DNA of 64,000 nucleotides, taken from positions 26,370 through 90,369 of IMG/VR virus record IMGVR_UViG_3300034104_003795; one strand, given 5' to 3'. A program made the position numbers and the translations under genes. Source of the DNA: a virus. Numbering within the stretch: the stretch's first letter is position 1; each line of letters begins with the position of its first letter. A model generated the notes under the pieces. That model did not search any database. It had not been told where the DNA came from and saw nothing but the letters and a program-made list of their open reading frames with translations. Positions 2,380 to 48,307 of this stretch are shown here, one piece after another.

Positions 2380-5300
2380 ATGAAAAAAATCGGAAAATTT
2401 CTCCTTATGGTAGTGATAACACTATTATCATTTGGAGCAAGTGCGCAAGAAACTACCTCTGAAATTCAGGGTTTGGTTTCTGATGGAAAAGCCGGATTAG
2501 CAGGTGTAACAATTGTAGCTACTCACCAGCCAACGGGTACGAAGTATAGTACTTCTTCTCGTACTGATGGTAGATACAACTTGCCAAACTTGAAAATCGG
2601 TGGACCGTATTCAATTCACGTAACATCAATTGGTTTCAAAGCAGAACATCAAGACGATATTACATTGTTATTGGGTCAGTCACACAAGGCAAACTTTATT
2701 TTGAAAGAAGCATCAACAACTTTGAAAGAAGTAGTTGTAACTTCAGGACAAAGTAAGGTATTTAACTCTAGCCGTAATGGTTCTCAAGAGATTATCAACA
2801 GACAATTGATTGAGAGAATACCAAACGTTAATAGAAGCTGGAAAGATTTAGTTAAATTAGTACCTTCACAAAACAACTTATCATTTGGTGGTTTATCTTC
2901 TCAATTGAATAACGTTACTTTGGATGGTGCTAACTTCAATAACTCTTTCGGTTTAGGTGATGGTACATTGGGTGGTCAAACTGGAGCACAACCAATCTCA
3001 TTGGATGCGATTGAGCAAATCCAAGTTAACGTTTCACCGTTTGATGTTAAGTTCGGTGGTTTCGCAGGTGGTTCAATCAACACCGTAACTCGTAGTGGTA
3101 AGAACCAATCATTCGGTTCGGTTTACCAATTCTTTAAGAATAAAGATTTACAGGGTTACAAAGTTGGTGATGTAACTTTACCAAAGCAAGATTTCACTTA
3201 TGATTTAAAAGGATTCACCGCAGGTGGAGCAATTGTTAAAAACAAATTGTTCTTCTTTGTAAATGGTGAACAAGAAAGTAGAATGGAACCTGGTACACAA
3301 TGGGTAGCATCTGATGCCAACAATACACCAAATGGTATCAACGTATCTCAAGCTAAAGCAGCTGATTTGGATGCATTGAGAAAGTTCTTAATTGAAAAAT
3401 ATAATTACGATCCAGGTGCATATCAAGGATACCAATATGGTTCAGTATCAAAAAGATTGACTACTAAATTAGATTGGAATATTAATAGTAAAAATTCATT
3501 CTCATTGAAATATACACTATTACGTTCATCAGCAGATATTCCAGCATCTAACTCACAATCGGTAAATGCATCAAATGGTAGAAGACCAAGTACAACTTCA
3601 ATGCCGTTTTATGGTGGTGGTTATACGATTAATAACAATGCGGATATTATTATTGGTGAGTTAAACACTAGATTCTCAAATAACGCTTCCAACAAATTAC
3701 AAATTGGATACACTAAATTGAGAGATTTTAGAGGAACATTGACTAGTGGTAATTTCCCACAAGTAGATATATTAGATGGTAACGGTCAACCTTTCACAAC
3801 TTTTGGTTATGAAAGATTTACTTATGGTAACGTTTTAAATTCAGATGTAATTCAATTGAATAACATTTTCAACTTATATAAAGGTAAGCATGAATTTACA
3901 TTCGGTACACAAAATTCATTTAAGAAATATTCAAATGGATTCTCACCTAACTATGCCGGAGCATTCCGTTTTAATAGTTTAGCTGATTTCTACGCATCTG
4001 CAGAAGGTACAAAACCGGCAGCTGCGTATGATTTATCGTGGTCATTAACCGGTGATTTTCCGTTGGTTGGTCCAAAGAATACTGAATTAAGTTTATTTGC
4101 TCAGGACAAATTTAGAGTAAAAGATAACTTAACAATCACTTACGGTTTGAGAGCGGATTATGTATCTTTCGCTGATAATTTCCTTTACAATCCAGTAGTT
4201 GATACATTATCTAAATTCTATGATGGTGTAAGATTAAATACAGGTTTAGCACCTAAAAATGCTTTACAACTTTCGCCTAGAATTGGTTTCAACTGGGATG
4301 TGAATAATGACCAAACATTGCAAGTTCGCGGTGGTACTGGTTTATTTCAAGGACCTCCACCATTCGTTTGGATATCTAACCAAGCATCTAATAGTGGTAT
4401 GGCATTATTCGGAAGTATTACAAACGCAACCGGATATATGTTTAATCCAGATATTAATGCATATAGACCAACTCCAACACCTGGTTTATCTAGAGCATAT
4501 TCTCTTAACGTAACTGACCCTAACTACAAATTCCCTCAAGTATGGAAATCAACGTTAGCAGTAGATAAGAAAGTATTAGGATGGACCGTAACTGCGGAAG
4601 GAACTTATATTAAGAACATCAACGCTACTGTATTCCAAAACGTTGCATTACCTTCAACAGGAAATATTACGTTAAGTGATGGTAGAACTCGTTTCATCAA
4701 ACGTTCAGTTTACGATGCAACTGGAACTGCTCAAACATCAGCTAATCCAAACATTGGTAACGCAATTTATATGACTAATGCAAACGTTGGTTATGTATTA
4801 TTCGGAACATTGCAGGTTCAAAGACAATTTAAGAATTTAGCGGTAAACGCTTCTTACACTCGTCAAACTGCAAAAGATGGTACAATCAATGGTTCTACTG
4901 CATTTACAATGTGGGGAGCTAGACCAACATCTACAAACCCTAATAACTTTGAAGAAGGTTTTTCAAACAACTACCTACCTCATAGAATCATAGGTTCATT
5001 TGTTTATGGTAAAGAGTTTATTAAGAATACAAGAACTTCAATTGGTTTATTATATGAAGCTTCTCCAAATTCTCCACAATCTTCTCTATCTTACACATAC
5101 GCGGGTGATTTGAATAATGATGGTTTCAATGGTAATGATTTAATCTTCGTTCCTAAAGATGCATCTCAAATCAAATTAACTAACGCATCTGCAGTAGGTG
5201 GTGTAGCTGATACTCGTACACAAGAAGAATTATGGAATCAATTAGATGCTTTCATTTCAAATAACAAATACCTTTCAACTCGTAGAGGCCAGTTTGCTGA

Positions 5301-5640
5301 AAGACAAGCATTAGTATTACCTTGGGTTCATAGATTAGATTTGAATTTCACACAAGATGTTTATATCAAAGTTAAAGATACAAAACATACTTTAAGATTC
5401 ACAGCCGATATCTATAACTTCACAAACTTCATCAGCAAAGATTGGGGTGTAAACCAAACTCCAACAACTGTAACTCCACTTAACTTCGTAAGATTGGATA
5501 CTGATGGAAAAACTCCGGTATTCTCATTCCCTTATTTAGATGGAAGAAACAAAGTTCCGTTTACTGATTCATTCAGAGATAACGTAGGATTTAGTTCTCG
5601 CTACCAAATTCAATTGGGTGTAAGATATATCTTTAACTAA
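2380..5640 (+). CDS. TonB-dependent receptor-like outer-membrane protein (SusC/RagA-type, N-terminal carboxypeptidase-regulatory-like domain)
   Basis: 1086 aa; signal peptide MKKIGKFLLMVVITLLSFGASAQE; N-terminal 'GLVSDGKAGLAGVTIVATH...GRYNLPNLKIGGPYSIHVTSIGF' CarbopepD_reg-like; Gly/Asn/Thr/Tyr-rich beta-barrel-like body ending ...GVRYIFN. Confidence 0.7.
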   Translation: MKKIGKFLLMVVITLLSFGASAQETTSEIQGLVSDGKAGLAGVTIVATHQPTGTKYSTSSRTDGRYNLPNLKIGGPYSIHVTSIGFKAEHQDDITLLLGQSHKANFILKEASTTLKEVVVTSGQSKVFNSSRNGSQEIINRQLIERIPNVNRSWKDLVKLVPSQNNLSFGGLSSQLNNVTLDGANFNNSFGLGDGTLGGQTGAQPISLDAIEQIQVNVSPFDVKFGGFAGGSINTVTRSGKNQSFGSVYQFFKNKDLQGYKVGDVTLPKQDFTYDLKGFTAGGAIVKNKLFFFVNGEQESRMEPGTQWVASDANNTPNGINVSQAKAADLDALRKFLIEKYNYDPGAYQGYQYGSVSKRLTTKLDWNINSKNSFSLKYTLLRSSADIPASNSQSVNASNGRRPSTTSMPFYGGGYTINNNADIIIGELNTRFSNNASNKLQIGYTKLRDFRGTLTSGNFPQVDILDGNGQPFTTFGYERFTYGNVLNSDVIQLNNIFNLYKGKHEFTFGTQNSFKKYSNGFSPNYAGAFRFNSLADFYASAEGTKPAAAYDLSWSLTGDFPLVGPKNTELSLFAQDKFRVKDNLTITYGLRADYVSFADNFLYNPVVDTLSKFYDGVRLNTGLAPKNALQLSPRIGFNWDVNNDQTLQVRGGTGLFQGPPPFVWISNQASNSGMALFGSITNATGYMFNPDINAYRPTPTPGLSRAYSLNVTDPNYKFPQVWKSTLAVDKKVLGWTVTAEGTYIKNINATVFQNVALPSTGNITLSDGRTRFIKRSVYDATGTAQTSANPNIGNAIYMTNANVGYVLFGTLQVQRQFKNLAVNASYTRQTAKDGTINGSTAFTMWGARPTSTNPNNFEEGFSNNYLPHRIIGSFVYGKEFIKNTRTSIGLLYEASPNSPQSSLSYTYAGDLNNDGFNGNDLIFVPKDASQIKLTNASAVGGVADTRTQEELWNQLDAFISNNKYLSTRRGQFAERQALVLPWVHRLDLNFTQDVYIKVKDTKHTLRFTADIYNFTNFISKDWGVNQTPTTVTPLNFVRLDTDGKTPVFSFPYLDGRNKVPFTDSFRDNVGFSSRYQIQLGVRYIFN

Positions 5641-5676: not shown

Positions 5677-5704
5677 GTCCTTTAAATAAATTTTCGTATA
5701 TTTG
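5674..5704 (+). promoter_or_regulatory. Bacteroidetes-type promoter candidate (-33 TTTG, -7 TATATTTG) directly abutting ATG 5709
   Basis: TTTG 5674-5677, N19, TATATTTG 5697-5704; implies near-leaderless transcript. Confidence 0.4.
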
Positions 5705-5708
5705 TACA

Positions 5709-6248
5709 ATGAGTAAAATTATTAATCTATTCGGTGGACCTTCAATTGGTAAATCCACACAAGCGGCCGGTTTGTATTATGAAATGAAAAAGGCAGGATA
5801 CAATGTTGAGATGCCTTATGAGTTTCCAAAGTTACAAGCTTGGGAAAGAAATGTATATGCAGTTAAAGACCAATTTTATATTACCGCTAATCAACATCGT
5901 AACATTTCTCGTCTTTATGGACAGGTAGATTATATTATTGTTGATTCTCCAATTCTATTTGGATTAATTTATAAAAATCACTATAACGAAGAACCGGAAT
6001 ATCCTTCTATGTTTTATGGATATAAGTTTGACGAGTTTATTGTTGACTTGCATGGACATTACGATTCTCTTAATATAGTGTTAGATAGAGACCCTACAAT
6101 GTACCAAGAAGATGGAAGATTTCAAAATTTAGAAGAAAGTATAGAAATTGATAAAGAGATTGTTGGTATGCTTGAAAAATACAATGTAGAGTATTTTAAA
6201 GTACCAATCAATAATGATACAGCCAATATCATTATATCACTATTATAG
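5709..6248 (+). CDS. P-loop NTPase / putative nucleoside(-tide) kinase
   Basis: 179 aa; Walker A 'LFGGPSIGKST' at N-terminus; small kinase-like size. Confidence 0.5.
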   Translation: MSKIINLFGGPSIGKSTQAAGLYYEMKKAGYNVEMPYEFPKLQAWERNVYAVKDQFYITANQHRNISRLYGQVDYIIVDSPILFGLIYKNHYNEEPEYPSMFYGYKFDEFIVDLHGHYDSLNIVLDRDPTMYQEDGRFQNLEESIEIDKEIVGMLEKYNVEYFKVPINNDTANIIISLL

Positions 6249-14127: not shown

Positions 14128-14487
14128 TTAGTTTTCATCCCAATACTTTTTACCTTTACGAACAACCTCATGCATACAAGCGATGAAGTATCCAAATTTC
14201 TTTATATCATCTACATCCAAATACTCAATCGTTACACCATGCAATCCCATCCAAAACAATTCGTACTTACCAGATACGTTTGGGTTTCGGTAAAGATAAA
14301 TTTTGAAACTATCTTCCCATTGTTTATATGGATTATTGGTTTTGGTGATGAAAGGTATTGCCGGAAAATGGAATACATACGCACTCCCATTAACTATCTC
14401 ACCTTTCTCTACCGTTATCTTTTCAATAGTACGATTGTGGAAATGGTGACCGGTAAGTTTGTTGATACCTTCTATGTTTAAGACCAT
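14128..14487 (-). CDS. MLTIENI-family divergent member (array A)
   Basis: MVLNIEGINKLTGHHF... Confidence 0.5.
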   Translation of the reverse strand: MVLNIEGINKLTGHHFHNRTIEKITVEKGEIVNGSAYVFHFPAIPFITKTNNPYKQWEDSFKIYLYRNPNVSGKYELFWMGLHGVTIEYLDVDDIKKFGYFIACMHEVVRKGKKYWDEN

Positions 14488-14723
14488 ATACCTTTCAGTT
14501 TTAAAAAGTTAAGGAATGAAGATTTCGGAGATACAGTCGAAAAATCATATTGGTCGTTGAGGTAATTTGCTTTGATAGTACTTTCCGGGTCTACATACGA
14601 TTGAGAAACCTTCAACTCCGCCTTCCATTGTTGGTATTGAGGATTTAGCATAGTAGTTGTTCTTTCGTTTTCCAAGACCTCATACGCTTGGACATCATTG
14701 TAGTTGTTATAAGTTGTACTCAT
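14478..14723 (-). CDS. hypothetical protein (81 aa)
   Basis: ORF overlapping upstream neighbour by 10 nt. Confidence 0.4.
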   Translation of the reverse strand: MSTTYNNYNDVQAYEVLENERTTTMLNPQYQQWKAELKVSQSYVDPESTIKANYLNDQYDFSTVSPKSSFLNFLKLKGIWS

Positions 14724-14745
14724 AATAAGGGTTTTATAATATAAA

Positions 14746-15241: not shown

Positions 15242-15598
15242 TTATACTAAATAATTTTGTTGAACGAACTTTAAGATATTGGTTCTATCCTTACCCGATA
15301 CACCTTTGAATGATTTGAACGAATAGATATCATCCGCCCAATACTTTGTCATAGTGTTGGTATGTGTAGGACGTACCTCAAAGAAACGTACAAAGAAGTA
15401 ATTGGGTTCACCACCGAATTCACTTTTGATACTAATAGGTACATATACTACCTCGCAACTATCCGAAGGAATCTTTGTTACTTCATCTAACCATATATCA
15501 ATAGGTTTAGAGAAATGTGAAAACCTCTCTATCTCATTGTAGAACCTTTTCCAAGTACTCTTACTTAACTTAATTGAATCTACATACTTCATAGCCAT
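15242..15598 (-). CDS. hypothetical protein (118 aa)
   Basis: ORF only. Confidence 0.45.
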   Translation of the reverse strand: MAMKYVDSIKLSKSTWKRFYNEIERFSHFSKPIDIWLDEVTKIPSDSCEVVYVPISIKSEFGGEPNYFFVRFFEVRPTHTNTMTKYWADDIYSFKSFKGVSGKDRTNILKFVQQNYLV

Positions 15599-15617
15599 AA
15601 TCTTAATTTTTATTTTA

Positions 15618-15941
15618 TTACTTTGTGTTTAATGCGGGTTTGTGTTTCTTAACCAATTCCATCTCTCTAATGTGAGCGGCCTCTTTACCTCTTACTACAT
15701 CTAATACCGATACTTCATATACCAATTCTAAATCATCAATGTAGTTGAACATATCCATATACAATTTCCAATCCCAATTTTCCCTTCTCGCTCTACTAAA
15801 ATGTTTTTGTAACCGAACCTTTGCGGAACGAAGGAACGCCCGACCGGTTGAAGCCGTAATACCAATATATTCGTTACCATTGAAGGTATTTGTAATAAGG
15901 TATATAATATGATTCCTATCTGTACGTTTCTTCCTACTCAT
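15618..15941 (-). CDS. GIY-YIG domain endonuclease (free-standing, homing-endonuclease-like)
   Basis: 'HIIYLITNTFNGNEYIGIT' = GIY-x10-YIG motif near N-terminus; start set at internal ATG 15939-15941 (MSRKKRTD...) because the ORF-track start at 16073 is TTG and a promoter-like motif lies at 15963-15994. Confidence 0.6.
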   Translation of the reverse strand: MSRKKRTDRNHIIYLITNTFNGNEYIGITASTGRAFLRSAKVRLQKHFSRARRENWDWKLYMDMFNYIDDLELVYEVSVLDVVRGKEAAHIREMELVKKHKPALNTK

Positions 15942-15962
15942 ATCTAACTTAACTTTTATACC

Positions 15963-15994
15963 TAAAATTACGAAAATTAATTGAGACCACCAAA
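15963..15994 (-). promoter_or_regulatory. Bacteroidetes-type promoter candidate (minus orientation: -33 TTTG ... -7 TAATTTTA)
   Basis: +strand 'taaaattacgaaaattaattgagaccaccaaat'; same architecture as other minus-strand promoters in window. Confidence 0.35.
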
Positions 15995-16079
15995 TTCTAC
16001 CTAAAAGTTCTCGATTGGAAATCAACCCTTTATAGATATATTTTAACCCCATACATAAGTCATTGACCGTCAACCAAGT

Positions 16080-16400
16080 ATATATTAACCCCTTTCCGTT
16101 CCATTTTAACCCTATGAACCCCTAAACCATACCTTTACCCTACCCATCCAAAATAACCCCAAGAAACCCCCTCGAAATGATTCATATATACGGCTATACT
16201 GTACAACCCACTGGTACCCCAATCCTAACCTATTGATTGTCAATGAGTTATAACCAATTGATAATGAAGGGGTTATATATAGGGAATATCCACCATACCA
16301 ATAAGGACGGATACAATAAAGACAGGTACAATAGTAATAAAGACTATATACCATTAGGGGTAATATATAAAAATCTCGTATAGCGAAAAACTTGGGCTCG
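16080..16400. other. strongly strand-asymmetric (C/pyrimidine-rich on + strand; G-tract-rich on - strand) non-coding region
   Basis: runs such as ccctttccg..aacccctaaacc..cccaagaaaccccctcg; only Tyr-rich spurious ORFs; candidate ncRNA / G-quadruplex-forming / origin-like element. Confidence 0.35.
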
Positions 16401-16475
16401 ATACGAGAAGGGGTTAGGGGGCCCTCTAATAAAAAAATATTTTCTACGGTTCCAAGAAATTCAGTCCCCTACAGT

Positions 16476-16554
16476 CCCTATGGCGCCTACGTTCCAGAGG
16501 ATTGGTATGCATGTATATATGTGTGTCCTCTACAATCCTTATGGCGCCTACGTT
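16476..16554. repeat. 18-nt direct repeat CCCT(A/T)TGGCGCCTACGTT x2 (16476-16493, 16537-16554)
   Basis: seen directly; one mismatch; 43-nt spacer. Confidence 0.6.
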
Positions 16555-16729
16555 GCGTGAGATTGTGTTTTTGATTGAAGTAAAATCTTTTTTGTTAAGG
16601 TAGTCCGTCCATGTGGGTAAGTTATAGACACAAGAAAGGGGACCCGATTCCCAGTCAGTCCCCTCAGTCAACTTGCTCATTTAATAAACGTCAAATCACC
16701 AAACACTCCTCATTCAAGAGGATAATATT

Positions 16730-17035
16730 TTATTTATTCATATAGTCCAATCCTATGTAGATATCGAACCATTGATTTATAACTCTATACTTTAGCCCCA
16801 TTCCTTTACTATCATAATCTGTATAATCAGGTCCAGCTACCGCCTTCACTTCATTATATAGTGCTTCCGCATCTTCTTTGTGTATGGCACATAGGGCGTG
16901 TATTTTTGCTTTAATACTAGCTTCGTGTCTCATACCTACTTCCCATACCGAGTGGCTATCTGACATCATATAGGACCAATCATGCTCATTCACTAACTGC
17001 ATTAGGTCACTTCTCATTGTATTACTTATACTCAT
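16730..17035 (-). CDS. hypothetical protein (101 aa)
   Basis: ORF only. Confidence 0.45.
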   Translation of the reverse strand: MSISNTMRSDLMQLVNEHDWSYMMSDSHSVWEVGMRHEASIKAKIHALCAIHKEDAEALYNEVKAVAGPDYTDYDSKGMGLKYRVINQWFDIYIGLDYMNK

Positions 17036-17279
17036 ATACTTAATTTTTTATAATAAATAAAATGTTACTGTCTCAGCTTTCCGCCAGGGTATATCATTTT
17101 GGGTACCGGGTCTATATGCATTACCCAGCACAGCCTTTCGGTTACTATGTCTACCACGTGGACGGACACGGCCACCACCACAGGTTGCAGATAGTAACTT
17201 CTTTATAGATAATATCTGGATTTCGGACTCAAACTTTACAGTCAATAATTTTTCACTCATTGTATAAGGGGTTTATGAA

Positions 17280-17579
17280 TTAATAAGAATAAGCCTTTGT
17301 ACTAGCTTCTTCCATCTCTGCCAAATAGGCTTTACCATTGGCTGTACCCCAATATGATTTAGGGATACTATTATCGTATGGATTTGTACGCACAATACGT
17401 TCAATCACTTCCGCTTCCAACTCATTCGAGCGTAGAAAACCATTCACCAATTTTTCCATAAGGTCAGAACGTGTCTCACGTCTGTCCAACTTATTGTATG
17501 CGGCCAAGGCCATAACTAATGTTTTCAACTCTTTATTTGAGAAAGCCGATACTAACAGGTCACAATTTTGATTATACAT
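17280..17579 (-). CDS. hypothetical protein (99 aa)
   Basis: ORF; AACCCCTT box 12 nt upstream of ATG. Confidence 0.45.
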   Translation of the reverse strand: MYNQNCDLLVSAFSNKELKTLVMALAAYNKLDRRETRSDLMEKLVNGFLRSNELEAEVIERIVRTNPYDNSIPKSYWGTANGKAYLAEMEEASTKAYSY

Positions 17580-17604
17580 ATAGATAATTTAAGGGGTTTA
17601 AAAA

Positions 17605-17913
17605 TTACTTCAAAAGGTATTTAGAACACATACCGAAACCAGCAGACTGTAAGTCCGATTTGATTTCCTTATGGAACTTTTTAGGGAACTTACCCATTGA
17701 AACCGGATACTCTCTCAAGATTGAATTGATCTTGGTTGTTTCAGATTTGAAAAGGGAAAGGAACTCTCTAGCCTCATTGAAGGCTTTACGAGTCTTACAT
17801 TGGATACGGTGGGTATTACCCAAGAAGTCAGTATATTCTACTGATACGTTAAAACGGGGGTTTTCACTCATTTTAGAGGCTGAGAAACTCTTAAAGGGAT
17901 TTTGCGTATTCAT
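17605..17913 (-). CDS. hypothetical protein (102 aa)
   Basis: ORF only. Confidence 0.45.
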   Translation of the reverse strand: MNTQNPFKSFSASKMSENPRFNVSVEYTDFLGNTHRIQCKTRKAFNEAREFLSLFKSETTKINSILREYPVSMGKFPKKFHKEIKSDLQSAGFGMCSKYLLK

Positions 17914-17934
17914 ATCTTATCATTTTTATTACAT

Positions 17935-18340
17935 AATAAAGATAGGGGTATTTTCCGAGCTGGCCAAACTTTTTGGGACTTATTTTAAAAATTCTTGCTT
18001 GAGAATCAATGACTTATGTAAGGGGTTGAATATCAATGACTTATAAAACGTTGGTTTTCAATGAGTTACGATTCAGTATAGATTAGGGGTATTTCACCCA
18101 GCCCCTACACAGATTCCAGAAGACCTGTCCAGAAAATGTGGATAACTTGATAAAAAACGGGTAAAACTACACAGAAAAATGTTCAAAATATAATATGTAG
18201 CATGTTAGTGTGTTAATTAGTATATTAACCCCACCAGTCCATCTGGGCCCAGGTCCCGCGGGACTTGTGGTACTTTGGGAACATCAGCGAGGTACATTGG
18301 GTACATTAGGGACATAAAAAAACCGGTCACATCGGACCGG
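17935..18340. other. long non-coding region: candidate replication origin / regulatory hub
   Basis: three TCAATGA(C/G)TTA(T/C) motifs (18006-18069), perfect DnaA box TGTGGATAA (18137-18145), adjacent GC-rich palindromes CTGGGCCCAG + GTCCCGCGGGAC (18243-18264), direct repeat GGTACATT(G/A)GG (18291-18315). Confidence 0.4.
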
Positions 18341-18341
18341 C
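18313..18341 (-). terminator. rho-independent terminator (minus strand)
   Basis: CCGGTC-acatcg-GACCGG hairpin preceded on + strand by A7 (T-run on minus). Confidence 0.55.
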
Positions 18342-18366
18342 TAATTATTTACTAACCTATCTTAAT

Positions 18367-18540
18367 TACTTAACGATAGTAGTAGTATCAGCTGCTACTG
18401 GAGCTACAGTTGAATCCACAGCTACTGCTGTTGTATCTACTGCTACTGCTGTTGAATCAGTAGTTACTTCTGTTGAAGTTGAACCACCACAAGCTACCAA
18501 TGATGTAGCGATTACGAAAATTGCGATTACTTTTTTCATC
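18367..18540 (-). CDS. small secreted lipoprotein with TTAVAVD repeats (57 aa)
   Basis: MKKVIAIFVIATSLVAC (signal peptide + lipobox LVAC) followed by Thr/Ala/Val-rich repeats; not in ORF track (<60 aa); bracketed by two terminator hairpins. Confidence 0.5.
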
Positions 18541-18605
18541 TTTGTTGTTTTTATATTTGTTTTATTGTTTACCCATTAAAATAACAGGTATAAGTATTGG
18601 TTGTC

Positions 18606-18646
18606 TTAAAAAATTGGGACCGGCTAAATAGGTATCTGCCGGTCCC
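18606..18646 (-). terminator. rho-independent terminator (minus strand)
   Basis: GGGACCGGC...GCCGGTCCC 9-bp stem, A6 on + side (T-run on minus). Confidence 0.65.
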
Positions 18647-18667
18647 TAATAAATTTATCAGTTAAGA

Positions 18668-18862
18668 TTAACCAACCCACTCATTACGAAGAGTCTTCGC
18701 TTTCTTTAATGAAGTCTCATATTGAGAATAAGTGATACCATCTTCGGTAACTCTCACGCGATAAGATACAGTACCAGATGGACGTGTAATCTTTTGAATG
18801 TTGTTAGAAACTGTTTCGTACATGTTTCCACGCTTTGCTGCTTTTTTTGACTTATTAGCCAT
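18668..18862 (-). CDS. small basic protein (64 aa)
   Basis: ORF; Lys/Arg-rich. Confidence 0.45.
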   Translation of the reverse strand: MANKSKKAAKRGNMYETVSNNIQKITRPSGTVSYRVRVTEDGITYSQYETSLKKAKTLRNEWVG

Positions 18863-18948
18863 AGTTTTGAACGGTTGACCTCTTACACCGCTAGGTTTAG
18901 TTTATTTCGGTCCAACTTATTAATAGGGGTGGTCCTTACCCTTTATCT

Positions 18949-19146
18949 TTATAGAATATCAAAGATACGAAATATTTCTGATACTTCCAAATTTATTTTT
19001 TCCTTACGTTCAAGGTCAGCAATAACCCTATCTACCATTGCTTCTGTTATTTGGGGTGATGCCATGCTCATATCTTTCATTAACTCTTGCATCGCTTCCC
19101 ACTTGTCACCTTCAACTTCTATACAAATATACGAATAATTTCCCAT
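18949..19146 (-). CDS. hypothetical protein (65 aa)
   Basis: ORF only. Confidence 0.4.
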   Translation of the reverse strand: MGNYSYICIEVEGDKWEAMQELMKDMSMASPQITEAMVDRVIADLERKEKINLEVSEIFRIFDIL

Positions 19147-19163
19147 ACTACCAAATTTATTTT

Positions 19164-19421
19164 TTAGGATGTAAAATACAACTCACCATTGTTGCTATAT
19201 ACCCTATCCACACTATTTTCTACAATAGTAACCAAGTTACCCTTGCGTAACCCTTCGGAATAGAATTTAGCATACTGGTCAGTAGATTGCTCTAATACTT
19301 CAATAAACGGTCCAGCATCTATTGTACGGCACCCAACAATCGGGGTATGTGTAAATGCAATGCGGACTTGGGGAAAGTCACTTAACAGTTGACGATAATA
19401 ACCTTTTGGCGGTAAATTCAT
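19164..19421 (-). CDS. hypothetical protein (85 aa)
   Basis: ORF only. Confidence 0.45.
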   Translation of the reverse strand: MNLPPKGYYRQLLSDFPQVRIAFTHTPIVGCRTIDAGPFIEVLEQSTDQYAKFYSEGLRKGNLVTIVENSVDRVYSNNGELYFTS

Positions 19422-19432
19422 ATTATTTGTTT

Positions 19433-19900
19433 TTATTTTGTAACTAACAATGCGTTAAATGGATTTCTATCTACAACCTCAACGGCTGCTATACCAAGGT
19501 CTGCTAACTCATCAGCTACTTTGGTTAAACCTTTCGCTACGATGTTAAAACCGTGTACCTCATCAATAGCAATCTTTGCGTACTCTAAATTCACATACCT
19601 ACGTCCGCTAAGGTCATCCATAATCTTTGCCGGTCCCATTGTGATTTGAACCATCTCTGGAAACTTCTCATTACTTACATCCGATATTGCGCAGTTTAAG
19701 TACTTAATGTGCGGTAACGGGTTCTTTTTACTACCAGCTTTAAAACCTTCTCTTAATGCTTGGATGGTCTTAATACTCTTAGCCTTCTTTGTAGCGGGCT
19801 TCTTTGCTGTTTTCTTTACAACCTTTTTAGTGGCTGCTTTCTTAACTACTTTTTTAGCTACCTTTTTAGGTGCTGACTTCTTTGTGACTTTCTTATTCAT
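19433..19900 (-). CDS. Lys/Ala-rich histone H1-like / AlgP-like DNA-binding protein
   Basis: N-terminal 'KKSAPKKVAKKVVKKAATKKVVKKTAKKPATKKAK' repeat tract followed by globular C-terminal domain. Confidence 0.5.
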   Translation of the reverse strand: MNKKVTKKSAPKKVAKKVVKKAATKKVVKKTAKKPATKKAKSIKTIQALREGFKAGSKKNPLPHIKYLNCAISDVSNEKFPEMVQITMGPAKIMDDLSGRRYVNLEYAKIAIDEVHGFNIVAKGLTKVADELADLGIAAVEVVDRNPFNALLVTK

Positions 19901-19928
19901 ATCTTATTAAATTAAAGGGGTTATTAAA

Positions 19929-20228
19929 TTACTTCACCATACCAATACGCTTCCAACTACCATTCCATTCCTCACCATTCAGGTACCAATTCCAATTCTT
20001 TTGTTTGATGTGTACGCCGGGTATACCATTCAGACGTTCTTTTGTAGTGTTTGAGGACCATCCAGCGTTTGTTATACTCAATACTCCTAGCTCGTCAATA
20101 GTTGCAATAGTATTACCATGCAATCTGAGCTTATATATACCATAGGACTCTTCTACACTCATATTAGATTTGCGGAAGGTCTCTTTACTTAAAAACTTGT
20201 CAATAGATTCTTTTGTGATTTTTCTCAT
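19929..20228 (-). CDS. hypothetical protein (99 aa)
   Basis: ORF; AACCCCTT box 4 nt upstream of ATG. Confidence 0.45.
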   Translation of the reverse strand: MRKITKESIDKFLSKETFRKSNMSVEESYGIYKLRLHGNTIATIDELGVLSITNAGWSSNTTKERLNGIPGVHIKQKNWNWYLNGEEWNGSWKRIGMVK

Positions 20229-20246
20229 AATAAGGGGTTTAACGGA

Positions 20247-20525
20247 TTACTTAACAATTTCAACCATACTCAAAGGTACGTTAAATGTACCAATACCAAA
20301 TCGGACTTTACAACGGGTACGATTGATTTCAATTACTGAACCAGTCGAACCTTGTACTCTGGGTGAATTCACTTTAACGTTGTCACCAACTCTTAATTGG
20401 TTTTTAACTTCATACGCCCTATCTAATCGAGATTCTTTTAATAGGGATACTACATAGGAATTCAACAACTTCAAGTCAAGTGAACTCATTTTTTGAATTT
20501 CTGCACGCATTTTTGAACTAATCAT
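20247..20525 (-). CDS. hypothetical protein (92 aa), KOW-like C-terminus
   Basis: 'VGDNVKVNSPRVQGSTGSVIEI'; AACCCCTT box 6 nt upstream. Confidence 0.45.
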   Translation of the reverse strand: MISSKMRAEIQKMSSLDLKLLNSYVVSLLKESRLDRAYEVKNQLRVGDNVKVNSPRVQGSTGSVIEINRTRCKVRFGIGTFNVPLSMVEIVK

Positions 20526-21300
20526 ATAATAAGGGGTTTAAATTTTAATACTTAATGTGAACACCATTCTGGTCATCCACAACTTTTGGATACCCGATGT
20601 TCGGCTCTCTAATAACAAAAGCAACGAAAACGATACCAAACCAAAGGATTGTCTTTAACATAGGGGTTATTTAGAAGTTTTGAAATAGTACTCATAAACG
20701 GTTTTACCTAAAACATATCCAAAAAGTGAAACTCCACTTATAAGGACGAACTCTAAAATTGTAATGTGTGTCATATCTCTTAATCTTATATACCAAAACT
20801 ACACCTATTTTTTAATATATCCAAGCTTTTTATCCACTTTTTTTGGTCCCCAAAGCGTAACTCGTTGATACTCAATCAAGAATTTTTTGGTAAAAAGCTG
20901 GATCTTGGTAAGTCATTGATTATCAACCACTTGCGGCAGCCGGACTTAACATAATATAATTTATAGGCGATTTAGGGGTTTTTCCATCGTAACACATTGA
21001 TTATCAACGAGTTGTGGACTTAACATAATATCCGTTATTGGGGGTCTCACTCAAAGGACGTACCCCGCCCTCCACTCCCTAAAGTTACGAAAAATACCTG
21101 ATATTTCCAACAGGTGTGGATAACTTTTTAATTAGTTGATAATCAATTCGTTATATGCCATCTCTAAACAATCCAACCAGTCTGCCGTGTCACCATCGGT
21201 TTCCAGTTGTCTTTTTATTTGTTTGGCATAACTAACTAACTCTTCGTCCATACCTAATTGGACAGCCCGTTGAATCATTTGAAGTTCTGTAAGCATATAT
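20526..21300. other. 775-nt non-coding region: candidate origin/regulatory region
   Basis: ~45-nt imperfect direct repeat (20909-20960 / 20996-21040: CATTGATTATCAAC..TTG.GGACTTAACATAATAT), TTGATACTCAATCAAGAATTTTTT (20865-20890), TTGATAATCAA (21136-21146), perfect DnaA box TGTGGATAA (21115-21123), near-DnaA box TTATCCACT (20830-20838); only tiny hydrophobic ORFs. Confidence 0.4.
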
Positions 21301-21304
21301 AACA

Positions 21305-21580
21305 TTATAGGTCAGTATCGGACCACTCATTTATTTTATCTAAACACCTTTGTAGTTTTAGAAGTTCCCTTTCGGCATCCTCTATTTGTTTACGTTTGTC
21401 CGCCATAATCGTTTGGACCAATGTAGTGGCGGCGTATTTCCTACCCCAGACTTTCGGATAATGGAAATTTGAACCAATAGGGATGTATTCACCTCTTATC
21501 AATGCATACCTGTCACCTCTTATGACAACCGCATCGTATTCACCCTCACCATTTTCCATTAACCTCATATCGTTATGCAT
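21305..21580 (-). CDS. hypothetical protein
   Basis: ORF-track frame 21305-21775 overlaps neighbour by 130 nt; start probably internal Met (MHNDMRLMENGEGEY...). Confidence 0.4.
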   Translation of the reverse strand: MHNDMRLMENGEGEYDAVVIRGDRYALIRGEYIPIGSNFHYPKVWGRKYAATTLVQTIMADKRKQIEDAERELLKLQRCLDKINEWSDTDL

Positions 21581-21644
21581 GGCACGATTTGATGCCACTT
21601 GCTCACCTGGTTTGACATGAGTATTTTTATGAGTCTTTTTTTCT

Positions 21645-22001
21645 TTACTTTCCTTTCTTTCTGTATGCACGTTTGACAAGTTTTTCGTTTTCCCTTGCTT
21701 GTATTTCGTATGGGTTATTTTTGTACCCGTATTTAATTTGATAATGATTGTACCAGCGGTATGACTGTTGTGCATGTGTCCATTCGTGTAGAATTGTTTT
21801 CTGAACCGCCACCATTCGTTTACATTGTGCTAAATTAATCCAAATTGTTTTTTCCCAATCGTAGTAACCACATTCGGCATCCTCTTTGGTATCCCAGTAA
21901 AAAGCAATTGCTCCACATCTGCTTTCACCCAGTTTTTCATGAGCCCAATTCCATAAACGGTTACAATCAAACTTCATTCCTATTTTATTACTTACACGCA
22001 T
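21645..22001 (-). CDS. putative zinc metallopeptidase-like protein (HExxH)
   Basis: 'ILHEWTHAQQSYRWYNHY'; paralog of 49120-49488 ('IVHEYTHYLQDPRWMTRYY'). Confidence 0.5.
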   Translation of the reverse strand: MRVSNKIGMKFDCNRLWNWAHEKLGESRCGAIAFYWDTKEDAECGYYDWEKTIWINLAQCKRMVAVQKTILHEWTHAQQSYRWYNHYQIKYGYKNNPYEIQARENEKLVKRAYRKKGK

Positions 22002-22039
22002 AAATATCTTTTAGATTTTAAATAGATTAATTAGATATA

Positions 22040-22071
22040 CAAATATACGAAAAAAAATCCATTCCACCAAA
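22040..22071 (-). promoter_or_regulatory. Bacteroidetes-type promoter candidate (minus orientation)
   Basis: +strand 'CAAATATAcgaaaaaaaatccattccacCAAA' = rc of TTTG-N20-TATATTTG. Confidence 0.45.
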
Positions 22072-22447
22072 TCTAATGCCAGTAAGGGTTACAGTAGTAT
22101 AGTGTATTAAATTCATATAAAAAAATTTTTTTGCGTGGAAAAGAATTCGTATATACCTCACATTATGACTGACATATACTAATTTTGACATCGTTTTTAT
22201 TGTGAAGTGGTAAAAAGTGGGATTTTGTGTTAAAGTGTGTTTTCATTGACACCCATCGGTTTTCAATTACTTTGTACTATCAAATTACATTTCATTAAAA
22301 ATTGTGACACTTACCCCTTAAAACGTAATTAAATTTTAGTAGTATCAAAATAGGGTTTTATCAAGTTTCAACGCAAGTCCCAACACCCTTTTGCTCACCA
22401 TCGTACTATCAATATTCGGACACAAAAAAGGGACCATTTAAGTATCC

Positions 22448-22642
22448 CTATTCTATTTCGTTTGTTGTACTATTGGTAGCGAGTAACTCGTATTTTTTAT
22501 TGATTAGGTTTCGTATTTGGGTACAAAGCTCGTATTCCTCAATCCCAATACATTCTTTTAATAACCATTGGAGACGTTGTATTTTATGTTGAAGTTCAAG
22601 GCGTTCCCTTTGTGTTAAACCGTGTGTGTGATTAGTATCCAT
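22448..22642 (-). CDS. hypothetical coiled-coil protein (64 aa)
   Basis: ORF only. Confidence 0.4.
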   Translation of the reverse strand: MDTNHTHGLTQRERLELQHKIQRLQWLLKECIGIEEYELCTQIRNLINKKYELLATNSTTNEIE

Positions 22643-22702
22643 AACATTGTAATTAATGCGGTTATCAATAGGAGCTCGGACCCATTACCTTTAATACGCC
22701 CC

Positions 22703-22894
22703 TTATTTATTCTTTTTGTTTTCATTTGGTTTATGTTCGTAATCCCATTCAGTTCCCCTACGGATTACGATATCTTTTTTGTTTTCTTTTGTACCGTATT
22801 CCTTACTATATACCAATATCTTTAAGGTTATGTAGAACCCTATAAAACCTATTAGAGCAAGGATATCAAAGAGGTTTATTTCATTACTCGGCAT
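22703..22894 (-). CDS. small membrane protein (63 aa)
   Basis: single TM helix; followed by further tiny hydrophobic ORFs 22895-23200. Confidence 0.4.
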   Translation of the reverse strand: MPSNEINLFDILALIGFIGFYITLKILVYSKEYGTKENKKDIVIRRGTEWDYEHKPNENKKNK

Positions 22895-23198
22895 CTTCTA
22901 TTCTATTGATTTGTTTTATTAGGTCTATTACACACCATACAGTCATTATACCTATTAACCCTATTACTATTCCCATAACTTATTTGTTTTTATTTTGTCT
23001 CCTTATTTCCCTATATATCAGTATTACTACTATTAACGTTATTAATCCCATTATCTATTAGTCTTTGTTTATATCCTTATGATTTTCGTTTATGTATCTG
23101 TCTACTATATACTGACCTATTCCATACCCTACTAACATTCCTATTACTATTACTACTATTAACATCTGTACTATAATTATTTTTATCTACGTCCGCTC

Positions 23199-23471
23199 TT
23201 ATTCCCAAACAAACTCCCAACTCCTATCAGCTCTTTGAACACTTAAACGAAATGGACCAACTCTTGGATGTGTCCCTCTTATAACCCATTCGGTTGGAGT
23301 AGTTATCAATTCCCTATCTACAAAATCCGCTGGTATACACGCCTTGTAATGTTTCTCTATTGCTTCAAACCCCATACCAGCAGTAACTCCAAAACCCCCA
23401 CCACCAGTGATATACCTTTCAAATGATTCTTGCCACCATGTATCCGTGTTTGTACTAAAATCTATTGCCAT
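23199..23471 (-). CDS. hypothetical protein (90 aa)
   Basis: ORF only. Confidence 0.45.
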   Translation of the reverse strand: MAIDFSTNTDTWWQESFERYITGGGGFGVTAGMGFEAIEKHYKACIPADFVDRELITTPTEWVIRGTHPRVGPFRLSVQRADRSWEFVWE

Positions 23472-23829
23472 ACTATTTGTTTTTAATTGTTTGTTATAAA
23501 TATATATTCAAATCTTATTTTTATTTCCTATTAATCCATTCTCTATTAATCAAGGCAGACACTATCAAAAATTTTCCCTATCGACCCGAACACCGATTCA
23601 CCGATACGATATATACTACAAGTACTGAATATACTATATGTATTATACTATGTATTACTATTGTCCGATTTTATTTTCTTATAGTTCGGAAATTACTTGC
23701 ACCCTTTGTTAGTTCCCTCAATTCCTTTACTTCATATAACAGGCAAAACATACCTATTGTAGCTACTATCATTAATATAAAGGTTATCCCCTCTAATATA
23801 TCTTTTGTTTTTAGTTCGTTATTCATATT

Positions 23830-30594: not shown

Positions 30595-31175
30595 TATTTT
30601 CTTTTTTTCTTTGGTGTTTCAATAGTTGCAGATGCTTCGCGTGGTTTCCAATATTCATCAAAACTTTTTTTAGCTTCACCCCTATCAACCATGTCATAAT
30701 ACATTTTTAAAGCGTAATTACGGCAAATAGTTCGAACCCATCCGTTATTCCAAATTCCAACTTCAACTTCTGAACCGCTTTCCTCACATACTCCATATGA
30801 TTTTTGTTCGGCGTTTCTAATCAATGCCCAATTTTTATCGGATGTACCTGTCACATAGAAACGTAACCCACCGAATTTTTCTTTGCATTGTGTAACCTTT
30901 GTAATCCAGTCACCTTTTTTTAAGTCATTAACTTTGATACCATCCACTAATTCGTAAATAATTTTAAACCAACCATTACCAACTTCAAACTCATATCTAT
31001 ACGGATTTGTTTGTTGGATGTAATCAATTTTACGAGTCCACTTTATATTTTTATGGATATACGCTAACGCTTTATTGTATGTTTTTTCAAACATATTGTG
31101 CTCATATCCTCTAACTGTGAATGTAAACATTTCTGGATACAATTCAACAATCTTCATACTATTTTCCTTTGTCAT
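30594..31175 (-). CDS. hypothetical protein (193 aa)
   Basis: ORF only. Confidence 0.45.
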   Translation of the reverse strand: MTKENSMKIVELYPEMFTFTVRGYEHNMFEKTYNKALAYIHKNIKWTRKIDYIQQTNPYRYEFEVGNGWFKIIYELVDGIKVNDLKKGDWITKVTQCKEKFGGLRFYVTGTSDKNWALIRNAEQKSYGVCEESGSEVEVGIWNNGWVRTICRNYALKMYYDMVDRGEAKKSFDEYWKPREASATIETPKKKRK

Positions 31176-31419
31176 CTTTTACTTTTTTCTTTTTACCTTT
31201 CAATTGTTTTTCGGCAATAGTTAATTCATCGGTTTCATCCGGTGATACAATCGTATCATTCTTTACTATTGCGGTTTTCAATGTTCCCTTCCATTCTTGT
31301 TTAGGAATAAATTTCCAAACGCCACTCCTTACTTTTTCTTCTGCGTCCTGGTCATCGGTTCTACGAATTTCATCCAAATCGTAGCTCTTTGTTTGTTTAA
31401 TACATTTAATACACTTCAT
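31159..31419 (-). CDS. hypothetical protein (86 aa)
   Basis: ORF only. Confidence 0.4.
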   Translation of the reverse strand: MKCIKCIKQTKSYDLDEIRRTDDQDAEEKVRSGVWKFIPKQEWKGTLKTAIVKNDTIVSPDETDELTIAEKQLKGKKKKVKDDKGK

Positions 31420-31511
31420 TGGTTTAAGCCTCCATGCTTATTTTTGTTTGTTAATTTATACAAATATACAAAAAAGTCTTGGAATTACCAAGACTTTATG
31501 TAATTATTTTA

Positions 31512-42967: not shown

Positions 42968-43327
42968 TTAAATTCCTTGCTCTCTACGAAGGTCATATTC
43001 TTCCTTCTCAATTTCGTTATACTCAACTACTTTTAAGTAAGGTTTGAAATCGGTCATATAGTAACCATTAAGGTTAGCCAAACTAATCATCGTATCAATA
43101 AATGATTTACGAACATAGGTCATATCAGATGAACCAAATCCCTGGTCACTCGGCCAATCTTGGTAATCTTCGGCTACATCATTAAGTGCTTCATACACCG
43201 CATCGGCGTAAGTTATAATTCTTTTAGAATATCTTCCCTCAACCGGGAAAGTGTTTCTAACTACATCGAACCCTTCTACCAAAGAAGCGGTTGCTAATAC
43301 TGAATTCAAATTGAAAGGTAAACTCAT
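42968..43327 (-). CDS. hypothetical protein (119 aa)
   Basis: ORF; AACCCCTT box 4 nt upstream. Confidence 0.45.
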   Translation of the reverse strand: MSLPFNLNSVLATASLVEGFDVVRNTFPVEGRYSKRIITYADAVYEALNDVAEDYQDWPSDQGFGSSDMTYVRKSFIDTMISLANLNGYYMTDFKPYLKVVEYNEIEKEEYDLRREQGI

Positions 43328-43342
43328 AATAAGGGGTTTTAA

Positions 43343-43570: not shown

Positions 43571-43653
43571 AATTTTAAATTTTATTACATAGTAAAACTA
43601 CAAAATTACATTGAGACCACCAAATTTTTAGGGTAAAATCTTTAAAAAAAGTT

Positions 43654-43721
43654 CATTGAAAATCAATGACTTATGGGTAATAAAATCAAATATTCGTAAC
43701 TCATTGATAATCAACGGATTA
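43654..43721. promoter_or_regulatory. perfect inverted repeat TCATTGAAAATCAATGA (43654-43670) plus CTCATTGATAATCAACGGATT (43701-43721)
   Basis: recurrent intergenic palindromic motif family. Confidence 0.5.
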
Positions 43722-44789: not shown

Positions 44790-44804
44790 ATTAAGGGGTT
44801 TTTA

Positions 44805-44836
44805 CAAATATACGAAATTATTTTGAATCTACCAAA
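44805..44836 (-). promoter_or_regulatory. Bacteroidetes-type promoter candidate (minus orientation)
   Basis: +strand 'CAAATATAcgaaattattttgaatctaCCAAAT'; TATATTTG box ends 13 nt before ATG 44789. Confidence 0.45.
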
Positions 44837-44837
44837 T

Positions 44838-48213: not shown

Positions 48214-48307
48214 AATTTTTAAGTTTTATTACATCGTAAAACTACAAAAAAGGCATGAAACTACCAAATATTTTAGGGGTTATTTTTAGGGGTAAAGACG
48301 TAACTAA

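Follow-up and report, generated by a model that had tools for sequence, protein, structure and literature searches.

Start codons in the Bacteroidota are chosen and graded without Shine-Dalgarno (SD) pairing in a manner that is only partly understood, the known factors being upstream adenines, low structure and a sequestered anti-SD sequence. In phage T4, the sites of RegA are AU-rich and overlap the AUG, and RegB cuts GGAG within SD sequences. In the ribosomes of Bacteroidia, the anti-SD tail is sequestered on bS21, bS18, and bS6 (PMC7797042, PMC13000457), and initiation regions are Kozak-like, unstructured around the start, and rich in A (at −3, −6, −12, and −13; Baez et al. 2019, PMC6847099). 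In Flavobacterium johnsoniae, UCCC placed at −14 to −11 reduced the translation of a reporter by 90% and UUUU by 60%, an effect that the authors left unexplained (PMC6847099). Here, we describe a C-rich box, AAACCCCTTA, in a 64,000-nt stretch of viral DNA (positions 26,370 to 90,369 of the IMG/VR record IMGVR_UViG_3300034104_003795; hereafter, the window), where it lies before the start codons of about ten small genes, including one variant and one doubtful open reading frame (ORF). Typical starts in the window have an A-rich leader with the consensus AAAAATWAAGWT-ATG in place of an SD sequence. The box is real and conserved. With moderate confidence, we interpret it as a cis-acting element of the mRNA translation-initiation region; its action on RNA rather than on DNA, the sign of its effect, and the existence of a partner are what we infer.

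Occurrence of the box upstream of start codons

The minus strand carries 136 of the 143 crude ORF calls, indicating that the window is almost wholly transcribed from this strand. The boxes found before start codons are as follows (positions are those of the window; the gap is counted to the ATG in nt).

14727–14735, minus strand: three-C variant AAAACCCTTATT, before the ATG of ORF 14478–14723 (81 aa)
Before ORF 16112–16354, minus strand: ACCCCT; this ORF is doubtful
17266–17273, minus strand: box AACCCCTT, 5–6 nt upstream of the ATG of ORF 17048–17260 (70 aa); located in the 19-nt gap past the stop codon of 17280–17579
17591–17598, minus strand: box AACCCCTT, 11–12 nt upstream of the ATG of ORF 17280–17579 (99 aa)
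19915–19922, minus strand: box ATAACCCCTTT, 14–15 nt upstream of the ATG of ORF 19433–19900 (155 aa, Lys-rich N-terminus)
20232–20239, minus strand: box TAAACCCCTTATT, just ahead of the ATG (gap 4) of ORF 19929–20228 (99 aa, Pfam Kyano_Gp96)
20531–20538, minus strand: box TAAACCCCTTATTAT, gap 6, ORF 20247–20525 (92 aa); one edge of a strain-variable cassette
20662–20669, minus strand: variant box TAACCCCT, gap 0, 38-codon ORF 20545–20661; the other edge of the cassette
43331–43338, minus strand: box AAAACCCCTTATT, gap 4, ORF 42968–43327 (119 aa)
44793–44800, minus strand: box AAAAACCCCTTAAT, gap 4, ORF 44169–44789 (206 aa)

An exact search of the plus strand for AAGGGGTT returned 17266, 17591, 19915, 20232, 20531, 43331, and 44793, the seven coordinates given in an earlier note on this DNA, and also 998, 16267, 16408, and 18020. 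On both strands, 13 exact matches were present, compared with 2.5 expected from shuffled sequences, and no shuffle reached 13. The core ACCCCT occurred 22 times on the coding (minus) strand, with 18 copies outside the ORF calls, and was located 0–15 nt upstream of the ATG in eight solid ORFs (starts at 17260, 17579, 19900, 20228, 20525, 20661, 43327, and 44789). CCCC was found within the 20 nt before the start in 8 of 143 cases (0.26 expected; maximum of 3 in 2000 pooled shuffles) and ACCCCT in 7 of 143 cases (0.04 expected in the pooled shuffles), and neither GGGG nor AGGGGT occurred in this interval at any of the 143 starts. The observation of the earlier note that the box precedes at least eight genes was thus upheld in the 64-kb window, and the gene class was clustered, as it had described, with boxes at 14.7–20.7 kb and 43.3–44.8 kb. 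AACCCCT was present in 15 copies on the coding strand versus 3 on the other, and CCCCTT, CCCTTA, AACCCC, and ACCCCT topped all coding-strand 6-mers when ranked by the fraction of copies within 20 nt of a start.

To derive a consensus, we aligned 30 non-redundant sites close to an ATG, taken from the window and from seven other loci. The consensus was nAAACCCCTTA; upstream of the C-run, positions −30 to −4 were almost devoid of information, and little was present past the TTA. The gap between CCCCT and the ATG was 4 nt at nine sites, 5 nt at two, 6 nt at five, and 7 nt at four, the others being scattered over 0–15 nt, and the C-run ended 5–8 nt before the ATG at most sites. The spacing was noted earlier as 4–15 nt; the usual gap is 4–7 nt (20 of 30 sites), and the full range is 0–15 nt.

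In the start regions bearing a box (−35 to +35), the C-run was unpaired in the predicted minimum-energy folds that were displayed, and the predicted stability and accessibility were the same as those of the other 127 start regions. A local hairpin or structured leader was rejected, since there was no added stability and the C-run was unpaired. No Rfam 15 family matched positions 15500–23500 on either strand at E values up to 1, apart from a chance miRNA match. Gene duplication was rejected as the source of the motif because the box genes were unrelated in an all-against-all BLASTP comparison; they are not paralogues, and the motif is therefore not a duplication relic. A −1 frameshift heptamer, A_AAC_CCC, was also rejected because the box follows stop codons. 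No Pfam or PHROG match beyond Kyano_Gp96 and weak SH3/KOW-like ones pointed to a function of the box genes, and neither the sequence itself nor C-rich leaders in Bacteroidetes were found described in the searchable literature. The strong evidence consists of the exact extended motif, its strand bias, its tight spacing, and its conservation across genomes.

Position of the box relative to promoters and operons

Intergenic promoters of the window are of the type −33 TTTG / −7 TAnnTTTG, for example ATTTGGTAG-N15-TCGTATATTTGTA. When compared with this Bacteroidota sigma-A promoter, the box itself matched neither the −33 TTTG nor the −7 TAnnTTTG. A scan for sigma-70-type promoters gave as many matches as expected from shuffles and is uninformative for this phylum. 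The following host-type promoters were located upstream of box genes.

44805–44837, minus strand: host-type promoter with −33 ATTTGGTAG (44829–44837) and −7 TATATTTG (44805–44812), upstream of the box at 44793
20793–20824, minus strand: host-type promoter TTGG...TAGTTTTG, at the head of an operon extending from 20774 to about 19164

At 44.8 kb, ACCCCT begins 5 nt past the end of the −7 box TATATTTG, so that the box lies between a sigma-A-type −7 element and the ATG at 44789, in agreement with the earlier description. Transcription in F. johnsoniae starts 4–5 nt past the −7 element (PMC6847099); the leader at this site is therefore predicted to be 10–11 nt long and to consist almost entirely of the box. 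The promoter at 20793–20824 is followed by a 35-codon ORF and then by four ORFs in a row, with a box in each of the gaps of 0–28 nt, and a terminator scan detected no terminator-like site between 20.8 and 19.2 kb. A similar arrangement was observed in the contig L135, in which three ORFs in a row, about 300 nt apart, each have a box 5–7 nt before the ATG.

Viral contigs were scanned with the pattern TATATTTG-N1-30-AAACCCCTTA, and the reversed box was used as the control. Of the 59 non-redundant matches, 15 had an ATG no more than 15 nt further on that began an ORF of 40 codons or more, and a correctly spaced −33 TTTG was present in 8 of these 15. The corresponding numbers for the control were 3 of 75 with an ATG-opened ORF and 0 of 75 with a −33 TTTG as well. 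The spacer between the −7 element and the box ranged from 3 to 20 nt across independent viral contigs. This layout and the variable spacer suggest that the box usually lies within the transcribed leader, at a position that is not fixed to the transcription start. Because it is found either downstream of canonical promoters at variable distances or in gaps of 12–28 nt inside operons, the box is very probably transcribed. The trait common to the convincing copies is proximity to a start codon within a transcript, in the first or an internal cistron, with no fixed relation to a promoter.

The earlier note had left two interpretations side by side, a signal acting in translation initiation or otherwise at the RNA level and a phage-specific promoter producing near-leaderless mRNAs; our results favour the former and disfavour the latter. 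As a promoter, the box would be the core (−7/−10-like) recognized by a phage polymerase or by the host RNA polymerase with a phage sigma-like factor; transcripts would begin at the ATG or just ahead of it and would thus be leaderless or near-leaderless middle or late mRNAs, which we consider unlikely. Phage promoters typically take the form of short, AT-flanked, strand-specific motifs directly upstream of genes, as does the T4 late promoter TATAAATA. With the common gap of 4–6 nt, a start 4–6 nt past AAACCCCT would coincide with the A of the ATG, and the copies without a following ATG (18021, 18085, 20974, and 43749) could be extra promoters. The hyperplastic regions of T4-type phages have about one promoter per small ORF (PMC2839356, PMC4122927), a pattern that would also suit this explanation. 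In addition, a −7 box TATATTTG on the plus strand ends 4 nt before the ATG of ORF 5709–6248 (AAA_28 domain; 5680–5711), and since the distance is so short, a leaderless mRNA is predicted for this ORF, suggesting that such mRNAs occur in this phage. Nevertheless, no sequence is conserved upstream of the box, and a second promoter element is thus lacking. The gap to the ATG varies from 0 to 15 nt and was 2, 4, or 10 nt for one and the same gene depending on the strain; gaps of 0–2 nt would place the transcription start inside the ORF. Complete host-type promoters repeatedly precede the box by 3–20 nt, which would make a second promoter superfluous, and the box recurs once per ORF inside one operon. 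It was absent from 22 structural-gene loci of other phages, from the 10 kb left of the window, and from the tRNA cluster of the window. Leaders shorter than 10 nt account for only about 3.7% in Bacteroides (PMC7366714).

Conservation of the box across phages

The comparison set consisted of fragments of metagenomic contigs. Fragment L279, from a 117-kb contig that is syntenic with the window from 21.8 to 10.9 kb and encodes proteins with 35–90% identity, has boxes before the Kyano_Gp96-like, 155-aa, 99-aa, and 81-aa genes. Taken together, boxes were located at orthologous genes in L279, L086, L015/L016, and L020 (35–90% protein identity) with gene-specific spacings of 4, 15, and 12–15 nt, and we count it as support that the boxes at orthologous sites appear to be under purifying selection. 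The orthologue of 17280–17579 in L279 retains the box 13–15 nt upstream (12 nt in the window), and the long spacer of the 19433–19900 box is preserved there as TTAATTTAATAA (gap 15). The box of the Kyano_Gp96 gene is retained in L020 and L279 (gap 4), and L021 has a host-type promoter directly upstream instead. The window has only a three-C variant before the 81-aa gene, whereas the orthologues in L086 and L279 bear the full CCCC box. The box of the 206-aa gene is kept in L014 (gap 10) and L015/L016 (gap 2) and lost in L017, whose orthologue (79% identity) has an ordinary A-rich leader. The orthologues of the 119-aa gene in L015 and L017 are preceded by a promoter or an A-rich leader, without a box.

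The box was also found in unrelated low-GC phage contigs, which have no nucleotide similarity and almost no proteins in common. In L001, it lies 17 nt past a −7 box, and L004/L005 contain five copies in 3.6 kb; L135, with its three small box-bearing ORFs, is also one of these contigs. No start-proximal box was present in Cellulophaga phage phi18:1, which shares only a methyltransferase with L004. The 22 box-free loci mentioned above are bS21/structural loci of other bS21-encoding Bacteroidota-type phages, whose kinship with the phage studied here is not established. A link of the box to phage bS21 or late genes was rejected because these loci are box-free. Megablast gave no match to cultured-phage relatives for the box region, L001, or L135, and no candidate reader protein common to the box-using contigs was found within the partial loci.

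Bacterial genomes were scanned with the pattern AAACCCCTTAT-N0-4-ATG. Among the matches listed, most were chance ones inside ORFs and a few were plausible host leaders; the latter included those of a Flavobacteriaceae membrane protein (L218) and a parC/gyrA-like gene (L277). The same degenerate scan of viral contigs produced mostly chance single matches and revealed L086 and L135.

The box at a cassette junction

Strain L002 lacks the 38-codon ORF 20545–20661, and its junction joins the box at 20662 exactly to that at 20532. The TAA of box 20662 is the stop codon of the 35-codon ORF 20667–20774, which thus overlaps the box; stop codons lie 0–13 nt before the box, and the similarity of the linkers reaches the last codons of the upstream ORFs (TGAAGTAAT...). 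The box would be embedded in an intergenic linker of about 25 nt (stop codon, A/T, box, ATG) that would also act as a recombination joint for small-ORF cassettes.

These findings bear on the explanation that the box has no role in expression and is the core of an intergenic linker, either persisting and spreading by providing microhomology for a cassette exchange among co-infecting phages like that of PeSL elements (early promoter plus stem-loop terminator) or remaining as its scar. Besides the box-to-box junction in L002 and the similarity extending into the ends of upstream ORFs, three of the seven ORFs with a terminal AAG-TAA are followed by boxes, orthologues exchange box and non-box leaders, and the box region has a GC content of 0.37 versus 0.31, as imported DNA would show. 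However, 10 nt is a very limited length of microhomology for homologous exchange, and a mere scar would be lost over time, whereas the box is retained at orthologous sites although flanking bases and proteins diverge (35–70% identity). The distance to the ATG is constrained, and the box is found behind promoters of unrelated genes in unrelated contigs well above the composition-matched control. We therefore regard a linker devoid of any role in expression as decidedly unlikely.

Proposed role in translation initiation

An element of the mRNA initiation region explains the observations best because the box has an SD-like spacing, occurs once per cistron, is unpaired, shows a strand bias, and has no upstream partner element. 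In the mechanism that we propose, a set of small, probably early accessory genes would carry the box leader instead of the usual A-rich leader. An unpaired run of four cytosines would be placed at about −6 to −11, between the adenines favoured by the host (A at −3 and around −12), and would be read on the RNA at the site where the leader passes over the 30S platform. Either the ribosome itself or a protein or RNA binding to the initiation region would act as the reader, and the box would set or condition the initiation frequency of these cistrons. Our guess is that it damps initiation or makes it factor-dependent, rather than enhancing it, in view of the strong loss of translation that a C-run in this region caused in F. 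johnsoniae.

Several points weigh against a role at the mRNA level. The Pfam matches listed for the 115 proteins of the window (25 of 30 families) included no Translat_reg, RegA/RegB-like, or other RNA-binding family. The box does not complement the 16S 3′ tail of Bacteroidia, and no convincing complement elsewhere in 16S rRNA was recognized, no computed search being made. Transcription through the box is deduced solely from the promoter consensus. The gene set consisted of mechanical, crude ORF calls, and within the window alone, the proximity to ATG was only modestly above the expectation for any intergenic motif. In orthologues, either an A-rich leader or a promoter freely takes the place of the box (L017, L021, and L015); the box is therefore dispensable for any given gene. 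Part of the sharing between phages could reflect horizontal spread of the linker and not selection on function. Finally, the copies in both orientations at about 16.0–16.4 kb and the promoter-adjacent copies would suit a DNA-level reader better.

In a bolder form, the box would be a new ribosome-contact signal for the SD-blind ribosomes of Bacteroidia, acting as a mimic of the anti-SD tail in or near the bS21/bS18/bS6 platform pocket or being read differently by ribosomes with a phage-encoded bS21. The sequence A-CC-CCUUA resembles the 16S 3′ tail ACCUCCUUU, and the box sits at the position of the SD–anti-SD helix; published contacts to U1537, which is absent from the box, oppose a simple mimic, and we consider this form highly unlikely. 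If true, the box would be a private phage channel switching a gene set on or off, and the 90% loss caused by UCCC in F. johnsoniae would reflect this interaction.

Several unrelated Bacteroidota-type phages have this box in common, a discrete and conserved element that occupies the SD position and is not A-rich. It raises the question of whether a second class of initiation regions exists in the phylum and is used by phages to control subsets of genes, for which the existing reporter, in vitro initiation, and cryo-EM systems of F. johnsoniae are suited. Since the box and the standard leader are interchangeable on orthologues, the same gene with either leader offers a natural paired comparison. 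Even if the box merely damps initiation or serves as a recombination linker, it would be a useful annotation mark for starts and cassette boundaries in huge freshwater phages.

Copies assigned to other elements and the gene-free stretch

The earlier note pooled copies of the motif that belong to different elements; the copies at 48275/48288, ACCCT at about 43630, and those at 17944 and 18925 are parts of other elements. Among the further non-coding copies that it listed, 18020 was confirmed, 16255 and 16330 were misplaced (the true sites are 16267, 16355, and 16408), and 43748 and 48274 are copies that read ATAACCCCTA and not AACCCCTT. Copies assigned to other elements or located in the gene-free stretch are listed below.

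48275–48293, minus strand: tandem ACCCCTAAAA, extended −33 element CCCTAAAA(T)ATTTGGTRG in the promoter of 47683–48213
17944–17949, minus strand: ACCCCT abutting the −7 box ACCCCTAtcTTTA in the promoter of 17605–17913; also present in L021
18922–18943, minus strand: leader hairpin of the 64-aa gene 18668–18862, with ACCCCT 18925–18930 as its 3′ arm
16268–16273, 16356–16361, and 16409–16414, minus strand: orphan ACCCCT in a gene-poor stretch with no credible ORF behind
16083–16173, transcribed strand: about six copies of the reverse complement (A)GGGGTT(A)

The copy at 17944 is a promoter flank rather than a start-codon box. The extended −33 element of 48275–48293 recurs at about 43626–43634 (TACCCTAAAA at about 43630) and in L015. 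It belongs to a second, highly conserved promoter class consisting of CCCTAAAA(T)ATTTGGTRG, 14–16 nt, TTTGTAGTTTTAC, tATGTAATAAAA, and about 10 nt to the ATG, with an ATG-TAA start-stop pair that recurs close to where transcription is predicted to begin. Sites of this class were located at 43580–43634, 48224–48280, and about 52290–52330 in the window, at about 4160–4230 in L015, and at about 2940–3000 in L021. In the hairpin at 18922–18943, the closing pair covaries, A-U being replaced by U-A in L021. The gene behind this hairpin encodes a basic protein of 64 aa and is monocistronic (18608–18992), with its own promoter at 18960–18992 and a terminator at 18608–18646, which is one of two real terminators, the other being at 18316–18342. 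The protein is 89–95% identical in relatives whose neighbouring genes are 35–80% identical, had no Pfam or PHROG match, and may be a key regulator.

A different motif was also observed near host-type promoters. There were 22 TTGA-N3-TCAA cores, mostly inside the 23-bp palindrome AACTCgTTGATAATCAAtGAGTT, arranged in groups of two or three just upstream of these promoters (2053–2134, 16063–16243, 17999–18036, 20865–21146, 43656–43714, 48308–48382, and 52375–52451). The groups look like operators of a dimeric repressor on early promoters.

The promoter-adjacent copies bear on the possibility that the box is a double-stranded DNA site of a phage or host protein (operator, roadblock, nucleoid, origin, or recombination site) and that its proximity to start codons is secondary, which we judge to be quite improbable. 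Consistent with a DNA site, copies adjoin promoter elements (17944, 48275/48288, and L279 5370), copies converge on a palindrome at 16233–16251, with C-boxes on the plus strand at 16046–16170 and on the minus strand at 16268–16414, and L004 has the inverted pair AAGGGTTATAACCCCTT. The very conserved 64-aa basic protein (18668–18862) is encoded in the cluster and could bind DNA, although it was seen only in close relatives. On the other hand, the box has a strong orientation bias relative to transcription, and each of its ATG-proximal copies stands singly and is asymmetric, with neither a dyad nor a repeat partner. The copies inside operons, between abutting ORFs, have no promoter to regulate, the spacing follows the ATG and not the −7 box, and the promoter-adjacent copies differ in their flanks (ACCCCTAAAA, ACCCCTAtcTTTA) and look like separate motifs.

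The orphan copies lie in a stretch of about 780 nt without a credible gene (15950–16730), in which the box occurs in either orientation and which could serve as an origin or a packaging region or encode a non-coding RNA. The gene calls of relatives omit the stretch around the orphan copies at 16268–16414. The stretch contains a 41-nt direct repeat (16464–16504 and 16525–16565) and a hairpin CTCGTAT...ATACGAG at about 16375–16407, and some of its sequence, namely GGGGGACTGAATTTCTTG and the region of the hairpin, is conserved at 6150–6300 of L279. A GIY-YIG homing-endonuclease-like ORF (15618–15941) lies directly downstream; the ORF call starting at 16052 is probably too long because a host-type promoter at 15961–15995 points to the ATG at 15941.

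The (A)GGGGTT(A) cluster could represent an anti-box RNA or DNA sites in the opposite orientation. As an RNA, it would be a phage antisense transcript from the gene-free 16.0–16.25 kb region (about six GGGGUU(A)) that targets the boxes for a joint shut-off of the cistrons. Five GGGGTT and several GGGTTA lie on the transcribed strand at 16049–16173, although the window has only 31–38% GC; 16080–16095 has a 16-nt match with 88% complementarity to the box at 19914–19929, and the C-runs, being predicted to be single-stranded, would be open to pairing. However, the cluster is weakly conserved in L279, where the G-motifs of the syntenic region read GGGGTG or GGGGTGGTT, no promoter or terminator bounds a small RNA there, and no Rfam match was obtained. 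The other box-using contigs have no such cluster in the stretches available, and we consider an antisense RNA very improbable indeed.

Two long non-coding regions contain perfect DnaA-box-like nonamers, TTATCCACA, at 18137–18145 and 21115–21123, each in a 26-nt repeat. Similar GGATAAC motifs are present in L001 beside repeated AAACCCCTGAC elements. This unrelated phage contig has at least six copies of an approximately 50-nt repeat, GGGGGAATTCCAGACAAATTTCCAAAACCCCTGACGGGGGT(GGATAAC), at 300–2900 and 13250, in which AACCCC can pair with flanking G-runs; it looks like an iteron array or a structured RNA.

Phage and host setting

Along the 64 kb, the GC content was 30–33%, rising to 0.37 at 16–22 kb. 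The products of the window include an ATP-dependent DNA ligase (nearest matches in T4-like phages), a helicase, Cpn10, a cyclophilin, a tryptophan halogenase, two PNP-family phosphorylases, the Kyano_Gp96 protein, and a SusC-like TonB-dependent receptor. At the end of the window, 25 tRNA genes are clustered at 58861–63850, all on the minus strand, with 20 amino-acid specificities and two tRNA-Met. From these features, the window appears to derive from a large phage with a Bacteroidota host, and the whole genome is probably about 300 kb. Many freshwater metagenomes hold near-identical copies of the window. The huge freshwater phages encoding bS21, with 293–331 kb, 31–33.7% GC, and 5–25 tRNAs (PMC9723584), are alike in size class, GC content, and tRNA count, and the likeness concerns these traits only; a leader motif was not reported in that paper.

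The SusC-like outer-membrane receptor (1086 aa; 2380–5640) is encoded on the opposite, plus strand and contains CarboxypepD_reg, Plug, and beta-barrel domains. The relative L086 encodes it with 87% identity, and it is an unusual auxiliary gene for a phage. The sole good SD-like sequence seen was GGAGG, 9 nt upstream of the ATG of ORF 31159–31419 (31417–31433). It stands out in an SD-blind phylum, in which host rpsU is the known SD user.

Comparison with known systems

The termination upstream ribosomal binding site (TURBS) of caliciviruses is, similar to the box, a short motif between the stop codon and the next AUG of tightly packed cistrons, and the box could likewise hold the ribosome for reinitiation. 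It differs in that TURBS pairs with 18S rRNA and lies inside the upstream ORF, whereas the box is also found in first cistrons directly behind promoters. We know of no rRNA complement to the box.

In the PeSL elements of T4-type phages (PMC2839356, PMC4122927), repeated short intergenic motifs flank small ORFs of unknown function in variable regions, and strain-level indel junctions fall in the repeats. The box shares these features, the junction being in one case, L002 versus the window. A PeSL comprises an early promoter and a stem-loop terminator and is about 50 nt or longer, whereas the box has neither a promoter consensus nor a stem-loop and is about 10 nt long (about 25 nt with the linker). 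The T4-type late promoter TATAAATA, which lies about 6–7 nt before the transcription start of late (structural) genes, is unrelated to the box in sequence; its two copies on the coding strand of the window are both within ORFs and at least 55 nt from a start.

As with T4 RegA and RegB, a group of early, mostly small genes of a large phage has a short sequence at the ribosome-binding region, through which joint post-transcriptional control would be possible. In contrast to T4, no homologue of either protein was found in the 64-kb window, and the box also occurs in phage contigs without detectable common genes.

The SD sequence resembles the box in being a short single-stranded element in a leader or intercistronic spacer, with one per cistron, a core ending about 5–9 nt before the AUG, and a spacing tolerance of several nt. 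The position and the occurrence once per cistron are thus those of an SD sequence, whereas a purine-rich complement of the anti-SD is not present: the box, with its CCCC, is rich in pyrimidines and runs in the same sense as the anti-SD (ACCUCCUU). Pairing of the SD–anti-SD type is therefore impossible for the box, and the earlier view that this C-rich sequence is not an SD sequence was correct.

The A-rich region of Bacteroidia shares with the box the phylum, the region of the mRNA, and a start that is predicted to be unstructured, and boxes with a 4-nt gap keep A at −3 and at −10 to −12. The difference lies in the centre of the leader, where the box puts C at −6 to −9, positions at which A is favoured.

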